From a virus, in IMG/VR virus record IMGVR_UViG_3300027747_004722, positions 35,016 to 99,015 of that record: a stretch of DNA of 64,000 bases; one strand, 5' to 3'. The stretch's first letter is position 1, and the number at the start of each line of letters is the position of its first letter. Under the pieces are notes generated by a model. That model was not told the DNA's origin. It saw only the letters and a list, made by a program, of their open reading frames with translations, and searched no databases. Positions 768-35,918 of the stretch are shown piece after piece. The position numbers and the translations under genes were made by a program.

Positions 768-2245
768 AAAAATTGACCCACGAAGAATTTGTGAGCCGCG
801 CCAAGAAGATATATGGTGATCGATATGACTATGAACAATGTAAGTACGAACACAGCCTTAAAAAGGTAATAATATCATGCCGCATTCACGGGCCATTCAA
901 AATAAAGCCCAGCAATCACATAAACAACCGTCAAGGCTGTTGGCATTGTGGAAATGAATCGACGGGCGTCAAACAAAAGAGGACGACAACAGAGATTGTG
1001 AACTTGATTCAGGCAAAGCCGAATTCCGAAGCCTATGATTTCTCTTCGATTGTGGGGGTCAACGACTATAGGTCGGATTTGGTCACCGTAGTCTGCAAGG
1101 AGCATGGAAGTTACGAACGAACTGTCCGAGACATACTGCGCAGCAAATACTTCGGATGCAAAAAGTGCAAAATAGCAGATGATACATTTACTAGGGAAAT
1201 ATTCATAGAAAAATCAAGCAAGACGCACGACTCCCGCTACTCCTACGACAAAGTCCGCTACACCAAAGCTCATGATCCGGTCGTGGTGACCTGCCCCGAA
1301 CACGGCGACTTTGTCACGGCGCCTTACATACACATCAAAGGAGGCGGCTTCTGTCCGATTTGCGTAAGCCACACCAGTTCGTACGAGATCGAACTCGCCG
1401 ACTATATCAAAAACCAATTCCCCGACCTGCCGATAAAGACAACCTGCAAGGAAATCGAAGGGGTCAGCGAGGTTGACATCATGGTGTATTCCGCCAAGGT
1501 CGCGCTCGAACTAGACGGCCTCTACTGGCACAGCGACATCTTCAAGAAAAAGAACTACCACCTTGAAAAAACGGTCGCCGTATCCAAGGCGGGGCACAGG
1601 CTCATTCACATATTCGAAGACGAATGGAGAGACAAGAAAGATATTTGCAAGTCGATGGTCGCAAACGCCCTTGGCCAAACCAAAACGAAGATTCATGCGA
1701 GAAGTTGTTCGGTGCGTGAGGTGCCTTCGCGCGAGGCGTCAGACTTCCTCCAAGCCAACCACATACAGGGGCGATGTGCCTCGCTCTATAGGTATGGTCT
1801 CTACAAAGACGAGATTTTGGTGGCCCTTATGACCTTCGGCGGCAACCGAGTGTGCCTCGGAGCCAAGAAAAAATTGTCGGAGTACGAGTTGCTTCGTTTC
1901 TGCAATGCCAGGTTCACATCCGTCGTGGGCGGCGCCTCCAAAATCTTCTCCCACTTCGTATCGGCTCACCAACCACAAAAAGTGACCAGCTACTGCGACA
2001 AAAGATGGGGAACCGGCGGCCTGTACAAAACCCTTGGCTTCAAAAAGGCAAAAGACACGCCCCCCAACTACTTCTATGTCAGGGGAGGAAAGAGGTTCGG
2101 TCGCTTTGGCTTCCGAAAGAATGTGCTCGTCGCCAAAGGGCACGACCCCAACAAAACTGAGCGACAAATAATGTCCGACCTTGGCTACAACAGGATTTAC
2201 GACTGCGGGAGCATGAAATTCGAATGGAAAAGAAAACAGGCATGA
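764..2245 (+). CDS. Free-standing Hef-like homing endonuclease (Zn repeats, Vsr/DUF559-like nuclease, Hef-type C-terminus)
   Basis: Three YDY..CxxHG..GCxxC repeats, EVDI..ELDGLYWH, RIYDCG C-terminus; lower GC; sits between nrdB and nrdA with 4-nt overlaps. Confidence 0.8.
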   Translation: MKKLTHEEFVSRAKKIYGDRYDYEQCKYEHSLKKVIISCRIHGPFKIKPSNHINNRQGCWHCGNESTGVKQKRTTTEIVNLIQAKPNSEAYDFSSIVGVNDYRSDLVTVVCKEHGSYERTVRDILRSKYFGCKKCKIADDTFTREIFIEKSSKTHDSRYSYDKVRYTKAHDPVVVTCPEHGDFVTAPYIHIKGGGFCPICVSHTSSYEIELADYIKNQFPDLPIKTTCKEIEGVSEVDIMVYSAKVALELDGLYWHSDIFKKKNYHLEKTVAVSKAGHRLIHIFEDEWRDKKDICKSMVANALGQTKTKIHARSCSVREVPSREASDFLQANHIQGRCASLYRYGLYKDEILVALMTFGGNRVCLGAKKKLSEYELLRFCNARFTSVVGGASKIFSHFVSAHQPQKVTSYCDKRWGTGGLYKTLGFKKAKDTPPNYFYVRGGKRFGRFGFRKNVLVAKGHDPNKTERQIMSDLGYNRIYDCGSMKFEWKRKQA

Positions 2246-4323
2246 CAAACAAGGACTATTATTGGCTCAACTCCCATAGCCGCCTCTTCCTCGAGCGCGG
2301 ATACCTCGAGCCGGGCGTGACCCCCGAGCAGAGGATAAGGCAGATAGCTGACAACGCCGAGTCCATCCTCAAGGTCAAGGGTTTCGCCGACAAGTTCGAG
2401 GGCTACATGAAGCGGGGCTTCTACTCCCTCGCCACCCCGGTCTGGTGCAACTTCGGCAACAAGAGGGGGCTCCCGGTCAGCTGCTTCGGCAGTTACGTCG
2501 AGGACAAGATGGAGAGCATCCTCACGAAGGCGGCCGAGGTCGGGATCATGAGCAAGATGGGGGGCGGCACCAGCGGCTTCTTCGGAGCCCTAAGGCCACG
2601 CGGGACGAAGATCAGCGTGGGCGGCGAGAGCAGCGGCGCCGTGCACTTCATGGAGATTTTCGACAAGGTCAGCGAGGTCATCAGCCAGGGCAGCGCCCGC
2701 AGGGGATCGTTCGCCGCCTACATGCCCATAGAGCACGAAGACATCGAGGAGTTCCTCCGAATCAGGAGCGAGGGACACAGCATCCAGAACATGAGCATCG
2801 GGGTCACCGTCACCGACAAGTTCATGAAAGACCTCATCGAAGGGGACAAGGACAAGAGGGCCATATGGGCCAAGGTCATACAGAAGCGGTTCGAGACCGG
2901 ATACCCGTACATCATGTTCGTCGACACGGCGAACAAGAACGCCCCCAAGGTCTACAAGGACAAGAAGCTGAAGATAAAGGCAAGCAACCTCTGTGTGGCC
3001 CCGGACACCCTCTTGCTCACCCGCGACGGGGAAATCACGATCGGAGACCACGAGGGCGAGGAGGTCGAGGTCTGGAACGGCAAGGAATGGTCGGACACGG
3101 TGATCCGAAAGACCGGCACGAACCAGCCCGTCCTTGAAATCAAATTCGTCATCAGGGAGCTGGACGACGACGACACCCAGTCGCTCAAGTTCTCCTCACT
3201 GAAGGCCACTGAATACCACAAGTTCTACCTGAAGAACGGGTCGGAGGTCAGGGCTTCCGAACTCAAGCCGGGGGACGAACTCCTACGATTCACCGACCAC
3301 AGGGGCAGGCTCGCCAGGACGGAGGTCCTCGAGGTGGCCCCCGCCGGGAACAGCGACACCTACTGCGTCAACGAGCCAAAGGAACACAAGGCCGTCTTCA
3401 ACGGCGTCCTCACCGGCAACTGCTCGGAAATACAGCTGTTCTCCGACGAGGAAAACTCGTTCGTTTGCGTGCTGTCGAGCCTGAACCTCCTGCACTGGGA
3501 CGAGATGGCCGACACAGACGCGGTCGAGACCATGGTCATGTTCCTTGACGCCGTCTGCGAGGAGTTCATACGCAAGACCGAGGGCGCCAAGTACATGGAG
3601 GCCCCCCGACGCTTCGCCATGGAGCAGCGCGCCCTGGGCCTCGGCGTTCTCGGATGGCACTCGTACCTCCAGAGTAAGATGATCGCCTTCGAGAGCATGG
3701 AGGCGAAGATGAAGAACGCGGAGATATGGAAGAAGGTGCGTGAGCGGGCCGACAAGACGACGGAGCAGATGGCAAAGGACTACGGCGAGCCTCCGCTGCT
3801 CAAGGGCTACGGGAGGAGGAACGTCACCACGCTCGCGGTCGCCCCCACGACCTCCAGCAGCTTCATACTCGGCCAGGTCAGCCCCAGCATAGAGCCCCTG
3901 AACAGCAACTACTTCGTCAAGAACCTGGCCAAGGGGAAGTTCACCTACAAGAACCCGTACCTCAAAGAGACTCTCAAGAAGTACGAGAGAAACGACGAAG
4001 ACACATGGAAGACCATTCTGGTCAAGGGTGGATCGGTTCAGCACCTGGACTTCCTCACCAAGGAGGAGAAGGACGTCTTCAAGACCTTCGGAGAAATCTC
4101 CCAGAAGGAGATCGTGATACAGGCCGCCCAGAGACAGAAGTACATCGACCAGTCCCAGAGCCTGAATCTCATGATTCCGCCTTCAACTTCACCCAAGGAT
4201 GTCAACAGTCTTCTGATCGAGGGTTGGGAGATGGGCGTAAAGACCTTCTACTACCAGAGGTCTGCCAACCCGGCCCAGGAACTGGCCCGCAGCATCCTGA
4301 CCTGCTCGTCGTGCGAGGCATAA
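2242..4323 (+). CDS. nrdA: Ribonucleotide reductase class I alpha subunit, no ATP cone, intein-containing
   Basis: PVSCF, GGGTS, SNLC/SE, APTTSSS, YYQRS, C-terminal CSSC; ATG 2242 overlaps upstream stop. Confidence 0.96.
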   Translation: MTNKDYYWLNSHSRLFLERGYLEPGVTPEQRIRQIADNAESILKVKGFADKFEGYMKRGFYSLATPVWCNFGNKRGLPVSCFGSYVEDKMESILTKAAEVGIMSKMGGGTSGFFGALRPRGTKISVGGESSGAVHFMEIFDKVSEVISQGSARRGSFAAYMPIEHEDIEEFLRIRSEGHSIQNMSIGVTVTDKFMKDLIEGDKDKRAIWAKVIQKRFETGYPYIMFVDTANKNAPKVYKDKKLKIKASNLCVAPDTLLLTRDGEITIGDHEGEEVEVWNGKEWSDTVIRKTGTNQPVLEIKFVIRELDDDDTQSLKFSSLKATEYHKFYLKNGSEVRASELKPGDELLRFTDHRGRLARTEVLEVAPAGNSDTYCVNEPKEHKAVFNGVLTGNCSEIQLFSDEENSFVCVLSSLNLLHWDEMADTDAVETMVMFLDAVCEEFIRKTEGAKYMEAPRRFAMEQRALGLGVLGWHSYLQSKMIAFESMEAKMKNAEIWKKVRERADKTTEQMAKDYGEPPLLKGYGRRNVTTLAVAPTTSSSFILGQVSPSIEPLNSNYFVKNLAKGKFTYKNPYLKETLKKYERNDEDTWKTILVKGGSVQHLDFLTKEEKDVFKTFGEISQKEIVIQAAQRQKYIDQSQSLNLMIPPSTSPKDVNSLLIEGWEMGVKTFYYQRSANPAQELARSILTCSSCEA
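2992..3420 (+). mobile_element. Mini-intein (143 aa) in NrdA
   Basis: SNL|CVAPDT...TEYHKF...FNGVLTGN|CSE; no endonuclease domain; +1 residue is the thiyl-radical Cys. Confidence 0.93.
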
Positions 4324-31887: not shown

Positions 31888-32493
31888 ATGAGCGACGATA
31901 TTGACCGCCACACGCGGCACAGGATGGACGAAAGGACGGAGGAGGACTTCCGTACCGACATGTTCCAGTTCACCGAGAAGGAGAGGCTCTGGGGAGAGGT
32001 GCTCCAGCAGGAATTCGGGGCCCGACGCAGCCAGTGCTTGGTGGTCGAGAGCGGGGTCGACAACACCGGCTCCGTGATTCAAGGCAGACTCGCCAACTGC
32101 AACCCCGACAAGTTGTATGTGTTCCCGGGTCGAGCGGAGCAGAGGTACGTCGAGATCAAGACTATCCCGGAGGGGCACAACAGGTTCCACACCTTCAAGG
32201 TGTCGGCCCTGAAGGGGTGCCTGCAGTACGGGGCTCTCATCATCGTGCCGAAGCTGGATCACTATTTCATGTACGGCGCCAAGGCGATGGAGTTGATGCT
32301 TGAGCGGTGCGATGTCATACCGTTCTTCGGAGGCAAGCCATGCGTGCAGCCGTCGATGACCTTAATCAGGTGGATGGAGTCGCAGGGGTTGGTCCTCAGG
32401 AAGCGCTGGACGCCTGAGGCCCGCACGCTCATCGAGCGTTACAAGGCGACCCTTTTGGCAGACAGGATCACCAACCGCCGCATAGGTGCATAG
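31888..32493 (+). CDS. Putative PD-(D/E)XK nuclease
   Basis: E...NPDKLY...YVEIKT; AAAGG RBS. Confidence 0.55.
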   Translation: MSDDIDRHTRHRMDERTEEDFRTDMFQFTEKERLWGEVLQQEFGARRSQCLVVESGVDNTGSVIQGRLANCNPDKLYVFPGRAEQRYVEIKTIPEGHNRFHTFKVSALKGCLQYGALIIVPKLDHYFMYGAKAMELMLERCDVIPFFGGKPCVQPSMTLIRWMESQGLVLRKRWTPEARTLIERYKATLLADRITNRRIGA

Positions 32494-32501
32494 TTTCATG
32501 T

Positions 32502-32538
32502 GGGCCGGCCGGGACAAATTCCCGGCCGGCCCTCTTTT
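32502..32538 (+). terminator. Intrinsic terminator
   Basis: GGGCCGGCCGGGA-CAAAT-TCCCGGCCGGCCC-TCTTTT. Confidence 0.75.
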
Positions 32539-32555: not shown

Positions 32556-35108
32556 ATGGAGGACGCCAAGAATGAGCGAGGTCGGATGCTGGATAATACC
32601 CAAGTCAATCACATCGAGTTGTGCGCCGGGTACGGCGGAATTGGTCTCGGACTATCAAGAGTTGTCCGAAATCTGCGCACAGTCGCTTTTTGTGAGATCG
32701 AAGCCTTCGCCGTCGCGAACCTGGTCTCTAAAATGGAAGAGGGACTCCTGGACCCAGCTCCTATTTGGTCGAATATCAAGACTTTCGACTTCGGAAAGTT
32801 TCACGGACTGGTGGACATCATCTCTGGCGGGTATCCGTGCTTCAAAGCAGGAACCATCGTCTGCACATATAGAGGATTCATCCCCATCGAGCAGGTCGTC
32901 GTTGGAGACATGGCTCTCACTCATCTCGGAAGGTGGCGAAGGGTCACCGCCGTCATGTCTAAACCTGGCGCCCCTGTCAGAAGGATCAAGGCGCAGGGCG
33001 TCCCGGGCATCGTCTGCACCGACGAACATCCCTTCTATACAAGGGACGGATGGAAGGACGCCAAGGACCTCAAGCGAGGGGACAGAATCGGTCAGGTGCT
33101 CCCTGAGGTTGTGGAGGACGACAGAAGCCCCGAGTTCTGGTGGGTCATCGGACGATACCTCGCAGACGGATGGAGACAGAAGCCTCCAACCCAGCATTGT
33201 GGAAGAATCACAATCTGCTGCGACCACAAGGAGGCGGACTTCCTCCAAGATAAAATCGCCGCCGCAGGGTTCCACTTCTATAGGAACACAGAAAGAACCG
33301 TCACTAGATTTGCCATCGTCAAGAAAGAACTCTACGAGTTCTGCGGACAGTTCGGATCCGGAGCCGCTGGAAAGCATCTCCCTGGATGGGTTCTTGGCCT
33401 TGATTCCGAACGGGCGAGGGCCCTCTGCAACGGCTACTTCACCGGAGACGGCCACAGAAGCCACAGATCAGGAAGTAAGTGGAGCGCCACAACAGTCAGC
33501 AGGGGCCTGTCTGTTTCTTTCGCCCTCCTCGCTCAAAGGGCTTTCGGAGTGGTTGCTTCAGTCAGAAAGCAGGAAGTCAAACCCAAAACAATCATTGAGG
33601 GCCGAACTGTCAATCAGCGACCCCAGTATATACTTACGGTTCCTGACCGAAATCGATCCGGAAAGGTTGAGGGAAACTACGGCTGGAAGTACGTCAGACA
33701 CAACGAGCCATGCGGAGTTGCCGATGTATACAACATCGCCGTCGACGAGGACGAGAGTTACTACGCCGACGGGGCCATCGTCCACAACTGCCAGCCGTTC
33801 TCCGCAGCAGGAAAGCGAAAGGGAAAAGAAGACGAACGACACCTCTGGCCCTGGATCGCAGATGGCATTCGACTTTGTGAACCAAGACTGTGCCTCTTCG
33901 AGAACGTCGAAGGACACATCTCGCTGGGACTCTCCACAGTCGTCAGCGACCTGGAAGAAATGGGTTACGATGTGTCGTGGGGAATATTCAGCGCGGCTGA
34001 AGTCGGCGCCCCTCACCAGCGCAAGCGGGTCTTCATTCTCGCCGCGAGAGATGGCTGGATGGCCCTCGCCGACCGCATCGGACTCGAACGCCCGCGGGAC
34101 GTCGCAGGGCAACAGGAATTCCCCGAACTTGCCCATATCGGTTCTGGAGAACGAAGCCGCGTGGCCGACGCCCCGCACGACGGACACGCAGGCGGGGCGG
34201 GGGTGTGTGCAGATAGGGAAGGGTCTGTACAGGCCGAGCAAGGCTCTGGAGGAGGGAAAGCTCGTCGGGGGCGCAAACCTCGCGGACGCGGTGACGGAGG
34301 GGTGGCCGACGCCTCGGACGCAGGACTCGAAGCACGGGGAGTGCACCCAGTACGAGCTCAACAGGGACAAGGGGAAGGACCTGCTCCATGTGCGGGTGGA
34401 AAGAGAGAAGATGTGGCCCACGGCTACGGCGAGGGACTGGAAGGACAGCCCGGGCATGTCGACGGTCTCGAAGAACCCGGACGGCTCCGTGAGGAACAGG
34501 ACGGACCTCCTTCCCCGCGCCGTGTACGCGCTTGGCCAGCAAGGCCAGGACAACAGCAATTCTGGTGGGAGCCTCCCCGCGTCGTCGGGCCAGTCCCAGC
34601 AAAACTGGCAGACTTTTGCGCCAGGAACCAACTGCAGGGGGGAGACTCCCCACAGGCAGGTGGTGAAGGCTCTGGTGAACGGGGACAAGCTGAAGACGCA
34701 GTGCCTCACGGTGGACCAGGTGTTCGCGGAGGAGATCAAGGGCACGAACAAGCAGAGGGAGACCTGGCCGACGCCGGTGGTAACGGACAGCATCGGCTCG
34801 GGGAACAGGAACCTGGAGGGCTCGAAGGCCCACGCGGGGGAGAGCCTGACGGACGTGGTGAACGGCGGCCAGAAGGCGAGGGTCAGCAAGAACACGGGCA
34901 AGCTGAACCCCCGCTGGGTGGAGACTCTCATGGGGGTCCCAGTTGGCTGGACCATGCCGAGCTGTACCTCTCCTGTGACAATAGAACCGACGAGCTGAGG
35001 CTACTCGGCAACGGCGTGGTGCCGGCAACCGCGGAGACCGCCTTCAGGATCCTCCTCGCGGAGATGTGGCAAAAGAGCCTCGGCGGACCTTCGCCAAGGG
35101 ACATATAG
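32556..35108 (+). CDS. C5-cytosine DNA methyltransferase, alpha chain (motifs I-VIII and X), intein-containing
   Basis: ELCAGYGG, CEIEAF, GYP|intein|CQPFS, ENVEG, PHQRKRVF, LRLLGNGVVP. Confidence 0.92.
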   Translation: MEDAKNERGRMLDNTQVNHIELCAGYGGIGLGLSRVVRNLRTVAFCEIEAFAVANLVSKMEEGLLDPAPIWSNIKTFDFGKFHGLVDIISGGYPCFKAGTIVCTYRGFIPIEQVVVGDMALTHLGRWRRVTAVMSKPGAPVRRIKAQGVPGIVCTDEHPFYTRDGWKDAKDLKRGDRIGQVLPEVVEDDRSPEFWWVIGRYLADGWRQKPPTQHCGRITICCDHKEADFLQDKIAAAGFHFYRNTERTVTRFAIVKKELYEFCGQFGSGAAGKHLPGWVLGLDSERARALCNGYFTGDGHRSHRSGSKWSATTVSRGLSVSFALLAQRAFGVVASVRKQEVKPKTIIEGRTVNQRPQYILTVPDRNRSGKVEGNYGWKYVRHNEPCGVADVYNIAVDEDESYYADGAIVHNCQPFSAAGKRKGKEDERHLWPWIADGIRLCEPRLCLFENVEGHISLGLSTVVSDLEEMGYDVSWGIFSAAEVGAPHQRKRVFILAARDGWMALADRIGLERPRDVAGQQEFPELAHIGSGERSRVADAPHDGHAGGAGVCADREGSVQAEQGSGGGKARRGRKPRGRGDGGVADASDAGLEARGVHPVRAQQGQGEGPAPCAGGKREDVAHGYGEGLEGQPGHVDGLEEPGRLREEQDGPPSPRRVRAWPARPGQQQFWWEPPRVVGPVPAKLADFCARNQLQGGDSPQAGGEGSGERGQAEDAVPHGGPGVRGGDQGHEQAEGDLADAGGNGQHRLGEQEPGGLEGPRGGEPDGRGERRPEGEGQQEHGQAEPPLGGDSHGGPSWLDHAELYLSCDNRTDELRLLGNGVVPATAETAFRILLAEMWQKSLGGPSPRDI
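32572..34998 (+). CDS. Overlapping +1-frame methyltransferase beta chain (WPTP repeats, motif IX-like)
   Basis: GGAGG 9 nt before ATG; 808 codons without a stop; six WP(T/S)P-like repeats; LNPRWVETLMGVPVGWT. Confidence 0.8.
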   Translation: MSEVGCWIIPKSITSSCAPGTAELVSDYQELSEICAQSLFVRSKPSPSRTWSLKWKRDSWTQLLFGRISRLSTSESFTDWWTSSLAGIRASKQEPSSAHIEDSSPSSRSSLETWLSLISEGGEGSPPSCLNLAPLSEGSRRRASRASSAPTNIPSIQGTDGRTPRTSSEGTESVRCSLRLWRTTEAPSSGGSSDDTSQTDGDRSLQPSIVEESQSAATTRRRTSSKIKSPPQGSTSIGTQKEPSLDLPSSRKNSTSSADSSDPEPLESISLDGFLALIPNGRGPSATATSPETATEATDQEVSGAPQQSAGACLFLSPSSLKGLSEWLLQSESRKSNPKQSLRAELSISDPSIYLRFLTEIDPERLRETTAGSTSDTTSHAELPMYTTSPSTRTRVTTPTGPSSTTASRSPQQESEREKKTNDTSGPGSQMAFDFVNQDCASSRTSKDTSRWDSPQSSATWKKWVTMCRGEYSARLKSAPLTSASGSSFSPREMAGWPSPTASDSNARGTSQGNRNSPNLPISVLENEAAWPTPRTTDTQAGRGCVQIGKGLYRPSKALEEGKLVGGANLADAVTEGWPTPRTQDSKHGECTQYELNRDKGKDLLHVRVEREKMWPTATARDWKDSPGMSTVSKNPDGSVRNRTDLLPRAVYALGQQGQDNSNSGGSLPASSGQSQQNWQTFAPGTNCRGETPHRQVVKALVNGDKLKTQCLTVDQVFAEEIKGTNKQRETWPTPVVTDSIGSGNRNLEGSKAHAGESLTDVVNGGQKARVSKNTGKLNPRWVETLMGVPVGWTMPSCTSPVTIEPTS
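32838..33788 (+). mobile_element. Intein (317 aa) with LAGLIDADG homing endonuclease
   Basis: CFKAGT start, TDEHPF block B, IGRYLADG and NGYFTGDG motifs, YNIAV..DESY, VHN|C end. Confidence 0.95.
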
Positions 35109-35459: not shown

Positions 35460-35918
35460 ATGAGATTCGGGGATTGGCTCGCCAGGAGGATCGACGAGAA
35501 CACGCGATACAGCGTGGAGGTGAACTACCGCACCAAGTCGAGGGAGGTCCTGCGGGGCTTCGCGAAGATCGCCCTCGGCTACGTCAGCGCGGCCATGAAG
35601 AAGCGCGGGTACCATGTCAAGCAGGTCTTCGAGGAGGATCCGCCCCGCATAGTCGTGAGCTCGCGAAACTGGGACGACGGCGAGTGGGTCGGGATGATCC
35701 ACTACAGGGTGGCCGACCAGTGCTTCGTCGTCTCCAACGGCTTCTACAACAGGGACAGGAGGACCGTCAGCGTGCAGAGGTCGGAACGGTGTTCCGACGA
35801 CACCCCTGCGGAGATGACCAAGTCGCTTCTCAACCTCATGCACAGGCTCAAGGACGAGCCCGACATGCACAGGGAGAAGCTCAAGCCTGTTTTGCTCAAG
35901 AGGGGCCCGAAGAAGTAG
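35460..35918 (+). CDS. Hypothetical protein (MRFGDWLA N-terminus)
   Basis: ATG 5 nt after TATATA. Confidence 0.75.
   Translation: MRFGDWLARRIDENTRYSVEVNYRTKSREVLRGFAKIALGYVSAAMKKRGYHVKQVFEEDPPRIVVSSRNWDDGEWVGMIHYRVADQCFVVSNGFYNRDRRTVSVQRSERCSDDTPAEMTKSLLNLMHRLKDEPDMHREKLKPVLLKRGPKK

Follow-up and report, generated by a model that had tools for sequence, protein, structure and literature searches.

In an uncultured huge phage, a single 2.5-kb gene most likely yields, from two overlapping reading frames, the catalytic and the DNA-recognition chains of one enzyme. We regard a two-chain DNA cytosine-5 methyltransferase as the probable product of this locus, specified by two co-extensive open reading frames (ORFs) on the same strand; no protein or methylation data are available for either statement. 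The gene lies within a 64,000-nucleotide stretch of viral DNA, hereafter called the window. An alpha/beta enzyme with about 2.4 kb of overlap had been proposed in a sequence-only reading of this DNA, and the proposal is supported by the frame plan, the starts and the selection described below, translation and activity being inferred. To our knowledge, small viruses apart, genes seldom overlap at length on the same strand with both of their products under selection, and here 2.4 kb would be dual-coded in a huge phage, in a layout common to a very large family. For this family, the databases hold one gene and thousands of 'hypothetical proteins'.

The two ORFs had been located before, and their coordinates, the 808 codons of frame B and the GGAGG (32558-32562) that precedes the B ATG by 9 nt were confirmed on the sequence:

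32556..35108, + strand: alpha precursor, frame A ORF, 850 aa (533 aa without the intein)
32572..34998, + strand: beta, frame B ORF (+1 frame), 808 aa

An alternative frame A start, the ATG at 32586, aligns with the A start of relatives. The start consensus among relatives is ATGTGG, which contains the ATG of B and the GTG of A a few bases apart. In 20 of 34 loci the B ATG precedes the A GTG by 2 nt in this way, and in only one of the 34 does it not lie upstream of the A start.

Frame A matches Pfam PF00145 with 94 bits (cut-off 22) and is also matched by PHROG 363 and PHROG 116, 'DNA methyltransferase'. Motifs I (FxGxG-type), IV (PC), VI (ENV), VIII (QxRxR) and X (GNxVP) are all carried by this chain, motif IV being split by an intein:

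32616..32639, + strand: alpha motif I, ELCAGYGG, AdoMet site (ORF translation, motif mapping)
32826-32837 and 33789-33803, + strand: alpha motif IV, split GGYP / CQPFS
32838..33788, + strand: intein CFKAGT...IVHN, LAGLIDADG, frame A, 317 codons
33900-33908, + strand: alpha motif VI, ENV
34017-34043, + strand: alpha motif VIII, QRKRVFILA
34533..34583, + strand: alpha island WPARPGQQQFWWEPPRV in the apparent spacer (W-E-P-P-R conservation)
34977..35024, + strand: alpha motif X region, DNRTDELRLLGNGVVP (alignment and co-fold)

Motif IX was not found on frame A and lies in frame B at 34903-34953. Pfam and motif mapping thus bear out the claim that frame A holds methyltransferase motifs I to VIII and X without IX, a description that was accurate as to the motifs and had left out the 317-codon intein. 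The interval between VIII and X had been taken for low-complexity sequence. It is indeed mostly a Gly/Arg/Ala-rich spacer, but it includes a conserved island of the pattern WPxRPGxxQxxWEPPRV, of which W-E-P-P-R is retained in 30 of 35 loci, its Pro and Arg codons varying at their third positions.

The insert in motif IV has the features of a class 1 intein, namely an N-terminal Cys, a block B (CTDEHPF) and a C-terminal His-Asn followed by Cys, and its +1 residue is the catalytic Cys of PCQ. It contains two LAGLIDADG motifs (VIGRYLADGW and LCNGYFTGDGH). The Pfam Hint, intein-splicing and LAGLIDADG models all score just under their cut-offs (29.5/35.8, 22.3/22.5 and 21.7/28.4, respectively), and these intein Pfam marks are borne by 204 homologous inserts in PF00145 proteins. 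Read in frame B, the intein DNA is a stop-free stretch of 317 residues rich in Ser, Thr and Pro. A metagenome scan gave 46 intein clusters, with less than 70% identity between clusters. The +1 frame contains no stop in 15 of them, over 306-352 codons, where the +2 frame has 7-32 stops; the remaining 31 have 2-33 stops in the +1 frame. The intein loci were sorted by the openness of the upstream +1 frame, as narrow HMMs for motifs IX, X and VIII placed few of them. Stop-laden inteins are found in two-frame hosts in which the B ORF starts downstream of motif IV. A scan of IMG/VR with the intein alone retrieved only two distant inteins, one in a radical-SAM-like enzyme and one in a DNA polymerase, both with normal +1 stop counts.

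Frame B carries the recognition-like modules and the missing motif:

32587..32826, + strand: beta N-terminal segment, WIIPKS ... WWTSSL, overprinting alpha motifs I-IV (B residues set by A third positions)
34057..34788, + strand: beta WPTP-type modules, frame B, starting at 34057, 34159, 34300, 34411, 34603 (degenerate) and 34762
34903..34953, + strand: beta motif IX, LNPRWVETLMGVPVGWT (aligns with IX of the single-chain phage B22 gp50; co-fold)

That the +1 frame encodes WPTP repeats and the segment preceding motif X had been recognised previously, and both were recovered here, at 34057-34788 and in LNPRWVETLMGVPVGWT at 34903-34953. The WPTP modules are likely the DNA-recognition part of beta. 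The frame-B product is matched by more than 2400 protein clusters, none of which has a Pfam domain, and a profile search of PDB sequences with beta gave no match.

Both frames are kept open, are selected in alternating segments and have conserved starts. The frame plan, in which motifs I to VIII are followed by the WPTP modules and motif IX in the +1 frame and by motif X back in the first frame, is shared by 36 of 38 IMG/VR relatives, these 38 being the complete loci with both junctions mapped. The 36 are independent assemblies with 30-83% identity, and neither of their frames has a stop anywhere along the gene, which answers the question, raised by the sequence-only reading, of whether both frames stay open in homologues. 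The same layout is present in gene 22 of the cultured Rhodobacter phage RcIroh; a megablast search of phage records with the locus gave no match. In other genes of the phage, the +1 frame has about 4 stops per 100 codons. When the codons of each protein were redrawn 5000 times from the phage's own usage, 12.3 stops were expected in the +1 frame of the intein and 12.0 in frame A of the B-coded part, against none observed in either, and zero was reached in 0/5000 draws in both cases. Synonymous shuffles of the window gene gave zero stops in 0/300 for each half. Because neither shuffling nor codon resampling ever produces zero stops, the stop-free state is held to be selected. Composition was rejected as the cause of the openness, since 29 stops occur in the +2 frame of the gene and the +1 counts of other genes are normal. 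The two frames also differ in their substitutions: between the window and its relative L002, the WPTP part has a dN/dS of 0.11 when read in B and of 4.3 when read in A. At fourfold A codons of the N-terminal region, third positions are fixed in 22/22 divergent representatives exactly at the invariant Trp, Leu, Val and Arg of B, and the remaining fourfold A sites of that region are saturated. Purifying selection at the amino-acid level acts on B in its N-terminal part as well as in the WPTP/IX part. Conservation of the gene between the window and L002 is far above that of its neighbours; this could stem from a recent exchange instead of from dual constraint, and to that extent counts against the two-chain reading.

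These data bear on a possible variant in which two chains are made but beta is produced only from an internal start, such as the in-frame ATG at 34051, the 5′ 1.5 kb of frame B being an untranslated or functionless leader. M.EcoHK31I beta can initiate at internal Met codons (PMC2836561), and in another subfamily of relatives the beta start lies downstream of motif IV. Some two-frame relatives thus do without the beta part upstream of motif IV, so that this segment is not universally required, an observation that counts against the two-chain reading in its full-length form. We nevertheless judge the internal-start explanation unlikely for the window. The approximately 490 frame B codons upstream of the WPTP part, intein included, contain no stop against about 18 expected; the B ATG is conserved in relatives, with an MWILPK-type N-terminus; and B-specific residues are fixed through synonymous-site constraint in A. 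Moreover, in each of the 15 stop-free intein clusters the +1 frame stays open over 33 codons or more upstream of the intein, and no Shine-Dalgarno-like sequence was found at a usable distance before 34051.

A single chain would result from a programmed +1 ribosomal frameshift downstream of motif VIII and a -1 frameshift upstream of motif X, openness elsewhere being incidental. Single-chain homologues do have the order VIII, WPTP, IX, X, which the frame swap points mimic. Their existence makes a fused product biochemically sensible, and to that extent counts against two chains. Phage methyltransferases are also among the frameshift 'false positives' of PRFect (PMC10885494). The 'methyltransferase frameshift' cited in PRFect concerns a different topic. 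However, neither junction (34020-34060 and 34940-34980) has a slippery heptamer, a shifty stop or a homopolymer run, and both frames continue open there. In most relatives, RVFILA of motif VIII in A and SSWPT in B lie on shared nucleotides, so that either the end of motif VIII or the first WPT would be lost in a frameshifted product. Nor does frameshifting explain why 36 loci have no frame A stop in the WPTP part, or why B is open, ATG-initiated and selected from its 5′ end through the intein. Coding had been thought to swap frames twice; this count has to be revised, as the WEPPR island of frame A and the selected N-terminal part of B imply at least four alternations of conserved coding, which argues against frameshifting; with the island, four shifts would be required. 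Programmed frameshifting is therefore a very doubtful account of the locus, and all the computational tests run here favour a pair of full-length overlapping genes rather than frameshifts or indels. As for two compensating assembly indels or a decaying pseudogene, the contig is a metagenome assembly judged without reads, but repetition of the frame plan in the 36 independent assemblies and in cultured phage genomes, purifying selection in both frames and the more than 2400 clusters matching the frame-B product leave this explanation scarcely credible, and indels near 34050 and 34960, named earlier as a finding that would refute the overlap, are excluded within the limits of comparative data.

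Structural prediction is consistent with the two-chain reading. Co-folding of spliced alpha with beta had been suggested as a check; the alpha/beta pair passes with a score of 0.85, the best control reaching 0.59, but only with the chains of the intein-free relative L002 and not with the window's own spliced alpha. The mark used is attained by 58/80 solved complexes and 2/110 mismatched pairs. At least 46% of contacts agree between runs, and the pLDDT of the partner is at least 56. The portion of this pass that concerns motifs IX and X may be due to likeness to solved single-chain enzymes. Contacts are also predicted between beta residues 1-8 and alpha residues 42-62, for which we know of no template of this kind. 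The single-chain comparison is provided by gp50 of Propionibacterium phage B22 (KX620750), which shares with the window the motif order, an LPTP unit, a motif IX (RFVEWMMGLPDGW) and motif X. On its single chain, six residues separate motifs IX and X, of which the former aligns to frame B of the window and the latter to frame A. It too has an intein, whose insertion site, ahead of the catalytic Cys, matches that in the window. In contrast to the window, gp50 is encoded in a single frame, and its intein has 2 stops in 322 codons of the +1 frame, at 66% G+C.

Altogether, these findings lead to a model in which ribosomes would start at A (32556 or 32586) and at B (32572) and would traverse the full gene in either frame. 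Alpha would consist of the AdoMet-binding/catalytic fold with motifs I to VIII, a largely unconstrained spacer with the WEPPR island, and the motif X helix, and intein splicing, itself inferred, would join GGYP to the catalytic Cys. Beta would comprise a conserved N-terminal segment, predicted to rest against alpha, then a tolerated insert of 317 residues, five to six WPTP modules and a terminal motif IX; the latter is presumed to pack on motif X and the WEPPR island of alpha, restoring the single-chain arrangement. The intein would then be 'bilingual', i.e., a splicing protein in A and a tolerated stop-free spacer in B. The more specific proposition, that the 2.4-kb full overlap encodes an obligate heterodimer in which the beta N-terminus is a functional clamp on alpha and the intein is bilingual in this sense, is only somewhat favoured. 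Each of these steps is inferred: the translation of both chains, their assembly, the splicing of the intein, methylation, and the protection that it would give phage DNA against host restriction. An 808-residue beta with an unstructured insert of 317 residues would be an odd protein, which counts against the two-chain reading.

Several known systems resemble this layout in part. M.EcoHK31I (E. coli HK31, YGGCCR) is a two-polypeptide C5 methyltransferase for which both chains were shown to be necessary (Lee, Kam and Shaw 1995, as summarised in PMC2836561). That source agrees with the earlier statement that its beta chain, bearing motif IX, lies in an alternative frame inside the alpha gene, alpha having motifs I to VIII and X, as in the window. 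Its beta is small and nested, with the target recognition domain (TRD) in alpha, whereas the window has its WPTP modules in beta. The window beta is moreover co-extensive with alpha (808 against 850 codons), starts beside the alpha start and has a conserved N-terminal segment; its frame runs on through an intein. The best reading is an alpha/beta enzyme that belongs, by its layout, with M.EcoHK31I but whose beta is full-length and contains the recognition modules, translation and methylation being inferred. In M.AquI-type split C5 methyltransferases, alpha has motifs I to VIII and beta motifs IX to X (PMC3404938); these are also natural two-chain C5 enzymes with a VIII/IX split, but in the window motif X returns to the alpha frame. 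Only in L019 and L041 is motif X in the beta frame, alpha ending shortly after motif VIII. In the ShiLan domain of actinobacteriophage methylases, an HNH gene is hidden in the other frame and the host frame reads through (PMC11855218). In both cases, a mobile element in a phage methylase gene is stop-free in a frame that is not that of its functional product; the window differs in having a canonical in-frame intein that is open in a second host frame. A term search of the ShiLan paper found no description of a two-chain methylase. Our literature search retrieved M.EcoHK31I, M.AquI and ShiLan, and found no description of the two-frame layout of this phage family.

If the obligate-heterodimer proposition holds, the overlap would be among the longest dual-coded stretches known in phages, in a family that would be systematically annotated as a single gene. 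If the enzyme does have two chains, methylase annotation and specificity prediction would need both frames, as the usually disregarded frame holds the recognition modules. The intein offers a rare natural test of second-frame translation and shows mobile elements to be capable of adapting to a target that consists of overlapping genes.

No tRNA was found in the 64,000-nt window. Long antisense ORFs across the gene (33558-34955 and others) were set aside as probable by-products, one antisense frame being stop-poor in most genes of this phage. Immediately 5′ of the gene lies a further feature, given as context only:

32502..32532, + strand: terminator-like hairpin, 13-bp stem with 12 G-C pairs, then a T tract

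The two overlapping reading frames that the sequence-only reading had described in the methyltransferase gene are confirmed, and their interpretation as a two-chain alpha/beta enzyme is supported by all comparative tests, although translation of both chains and methylation are inferred and remain unproven at the protein level. The IMG/VR record that holds the gene spans 99 kb with an estimated completeness of only ~20%, and its source is therefore taken to be a huge phage. Both ORFs have the lengths and coordinates originally reported, whereas 29 stops interrupt the third sense frame over the same stretch. The gene is laid out as follows:

32502-32532, strong terminator-like hairpin (13 bp, G+C-rich) with a T tract after it, immediately before the methyltransferase gene
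32556-35108, plus strand, frame A ORF of 850 aa (putative alpha), overlapping frame B with an offset of one base
32572-34998, plus strand, frame B ORF of 808 aa (putative beta), on the same DNA as frame A, offset by one base
32838-33788, plus strand, frame A, intein of 317 codons that splits motif IV

Given the upstream hairpin, the gene may be transcribed from a start of its own, but no sigma-70-like promoter was detected in its vicinity. Frame A encodes a C5 cytosine methyltransferase: it scores 94 bits with PF00145, whose cut-off is 22, and carries motifs I, IV, VI, VIII and X. The sequence-only reading had not mentioned the intein in motif IV, which starts with CFKAGT, has TDEH as block B, carries two LAGLIDADG motifs and ends with IVHN, the +1 residue being the catalytic Cys of PCQ. 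Frame B does have its own ribosome-binding site, a GGAGG located 9 nt before its ATG, and from 34051 onward it encodes WPTP-type units and LNPRWVETLMGVPVGWT, a part that matches by tblastn the DNA methylase-annotated region of Rhodobacter phage genomes. Its proposed role in supplying motif IX is supported: in gp50, the single-chain methyltransferase of Propionibacterium phage B22, motifs IX and X lie on one chain, six residues apart, and IX aligns to frame B of the window but X to frame A. The window thus divides over two frames what elsewhere is contiguous.

Whether both frames stay open in homologues, a question left by the sequence-only reading, can be answered in the affirmative. Scanning IMG/VR with a piece of frame B yielded 40 loci (28-83% identity), 38 of them complete. 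In 36 of the 38, tblastn places motifs I-VIII in one frame, WPTP units and IX in the +1 frame and X in the first frame again, and both frames are open from stop to stop across the whole gene. The other two, L019 and L041, are M.AquI-like, with motif X in the B frame and alpha ending shortly after VIII; frame B is nonetheless open from the 5′ end of the gene. The closest relative, L002, comes from a different sample and lacks the intein (GGYPCQPFS is unbroken), yet both its frames are still open. Gene 22 of the cultured Rhodobacter phage RcIroh has the same layout, annotated in frame A only. In five loci (L011, L034, L035, L036, L040), frame B extends 424-743 codons beyond the alpha stop, as would be expected of a beta fused with a domain or gene downstream.

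The +1 frame of this phage's other genes contains ~4 stops per 100 codons. When the protein was held fixed and codons were redrawn from the phage's own usage, stops were expected in each of four segments, and none is observed in any of them:

Expected and observed stops in the alternative frame
N-extein, +1 frame: expected 4.1, observed 0 (zero-stop draws not counted)
Intein, +1 frame: expected 12.3, observed 0 (zero reached in 0 of 5000 draws)
IV-VIII part, +1 frame: expected 1.7, observed 0 (zero-stop draws not counted)
B-coded part, frame A: expected 12.0, observed 0 (zero reached in 0 of 5000 draws)

Shuffling synonymous codons inside each locus gave the same answer family-wide. Judged from these sequences, the two-frame openness of the gene is neither an error nor a product of chance.

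Selection acts on each frame in turn. Between the window and L002, dN/dS in the WPTP part is 0.11 for frame B but 4.3 for frame A, and in the motif X tail it is 0.12 for frame A. Across I-VIII, compared in 22 representatives less than 85% identical in that region, frame A is better conserved overall than frame B; at columns 34, 56 and 63-65, the more conserved residue is that of frame B. Several fourfold-degenerate A codons have an identical third base in 22/22, coinciding with invariant frame-B Trp, Leu, Val or Arg (columns 60, 77, 157, 161 and 165) and not forced by stop avoidance alone, while other fourfold sites, such as the motif IV Gly/Pro codons, use all four bases. Because these third bases are fixed at B-invariant residues, the N-terminal part of beta is a selected polypeptide rather than a mere open leader. 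The stretch of frame A between VIII and X, first read as low-complexity, contains a conserved island, WPxRPGxxQxxWEPPRV (34533-34583), of which 30 of 35 loci retain W-E-P-P-R; its Pro/Arg third positions are free to vary, and the frame-B reading changes along with them. Coding does swap frames, but not just twice as had been proposed, since with this island and the selected B segments the conserved information runs A, B, A, B, A. The flanking genes (31888-32493 and 35460-35918) have diverged strongly between the window and L002 (dS 0.66-1.35), in contrast to the methyltransferase gene, near-identical in IV-VIII (dS ~0.02) and at 0.14-0.27 elsewhere; dual-coding constraint, recent gene exchange or both may account for this.

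A single product could instead arise by ribosomal frameshifting between the two frames, and single-chain relatives do exist, but neither frame junction shows a slippery heptamer, a shifty stop or a long homopolymer, and collecting all conserved segments would take four shifts. In most relatives, moreover, the nucleotides that encode RVFILA, which closes motif VIII in frame A, also encode SSWPT, the first WPT unit in frame B. Frameshifting also leaves unexplained why frame B begins with an ATG and is open and conserved right from the 5′ end, and why frame A has no stops across the WPTP part.

Two separately initiated chains are also what the 5′ ends suggest. These have ATGTGGATA in common, in which an ATG opens frame B (MWILPK...) and an overlapping GTG, two bases on, opens frame A in 20 of 34 loci; the B start is upstream of the A start in all but one (n = 34). 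The window reads ATGCTGGATA here, with ATGCTGG instead of the family's ATGTGG at 32584-32592, so that this ATG (32586) falls in frame A. Frame B has a new upstream ATG at 32572, with its GGAGG, while for frame A both 32556 and 32586 are possible starts.

The alpha/beta two-frame logic is shared with M.EcoHK31I, in which beta (IX) lies wholly inside another frame of the alpha gene (I-VIII, X and TRD) and both chains are needed (PMC2836561). Unlike in that system, alpha and beta here are co-extensive, their starts lie next to each other, recognition-like modules and a conserved N-terminal segment sit in beta, and the gene has an intein. In a 5.8-billion-sequence collection, 2403 protein clusters match the frame-B product, none with a Pfam domain and every named one a 'hypothetical protein'. 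Our literature search found no paper on the two-frame layout of this phage methyltransferase family; the ShiLan paper describes a related trick, out-of-frame HNH genes inside phage methylases, and does not cover the two-chain layout as far as a search of its terms showed.

The co-folding that had been suggested was performed with the chains of L002 and family alignments A1 and A2, not with the window's own chains. It scored 0.85 against 0.59 for the best control; among 80 solved complexes, 58 reach this mark, as do 2 among 110 mismatched pairs. Contact agreement between runs is at least 46%, and partner pLDDT is at least 56. Predicted contacts join beta IX (405-433) to alpha X (428-449) and the WEPPR island (296-304), beta 1-8 to alpha 42-62, and beta 30-84 and 128-157 to alpha. 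The model supports alpha-beta binding without showing it, and its IX-X contacts may merely reproduce those of solved single-chain enzymes. Beta 85-127 lies outside the predicted interface; the intein DNA would insert at about residue 84/85.

This intein provides a natural experiment. Homologues (43-82% identity) occur in more than 200 PF00145 proteins, and an intein-motif metagenome scan together with phage records gave 46 clusters of less than 70% mutual identity. Fifteen, the window's included, have zero +1 stops over 306-352 codons, with 7-32 stops in the +2 frame, even at G+C contents of 33-43%. Upstream of the intein, every one of the 15 also keeps its +1 frame open, for 33 codons or more (mostly 75-129). 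The other 31 have 2-33 +1 stops, none having exactly one. Stop-laden inteins reside either in single-frame hosts (E. coli phage A4, Pacc40, B22) or in two-frame hosts of another subfamily (EBPR siphovirus 2, i.e., L048 gp44, 2983-4236, and loci L057, L059, L061 and L071), in which frame B is closed upstream too and beta restarts at a start codon inside the intein 3′ end. From this pattern, the intein is stop-free exactly where the beta ORF starts upstream of the insertion site, as translation of beta straight through intein DNA would predict; such translation is inferred, without protein data. In the window, the frame-B insert is 22% Ser, 11% Thr and 9% Pro.

What looks like a three-frame arrangement occurs in L050 (MT835477.1, 1707-3904) and ~30 near-identical human-gut contigs (L096-L130): frame 0 holds I-VIII with an intein and ends at 3239, a +1 ORF (1918-3216) crosses that intein without a stop at 41% G+C and terminates in ...SLKWSRGGMMQNG..., and a +2 ORF (3173-3904) holds TRD, IX and X. 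Mycobacteriophage methylase genes with this intein type are named 'anaerobic ribonucleoside reductase large subunit' or 'DNA helicase' in RefSeq (NC_011287.1, NC_051716.1 and others), names probably transferred via the intein; the GenBank copies read 'DNA methylase'.
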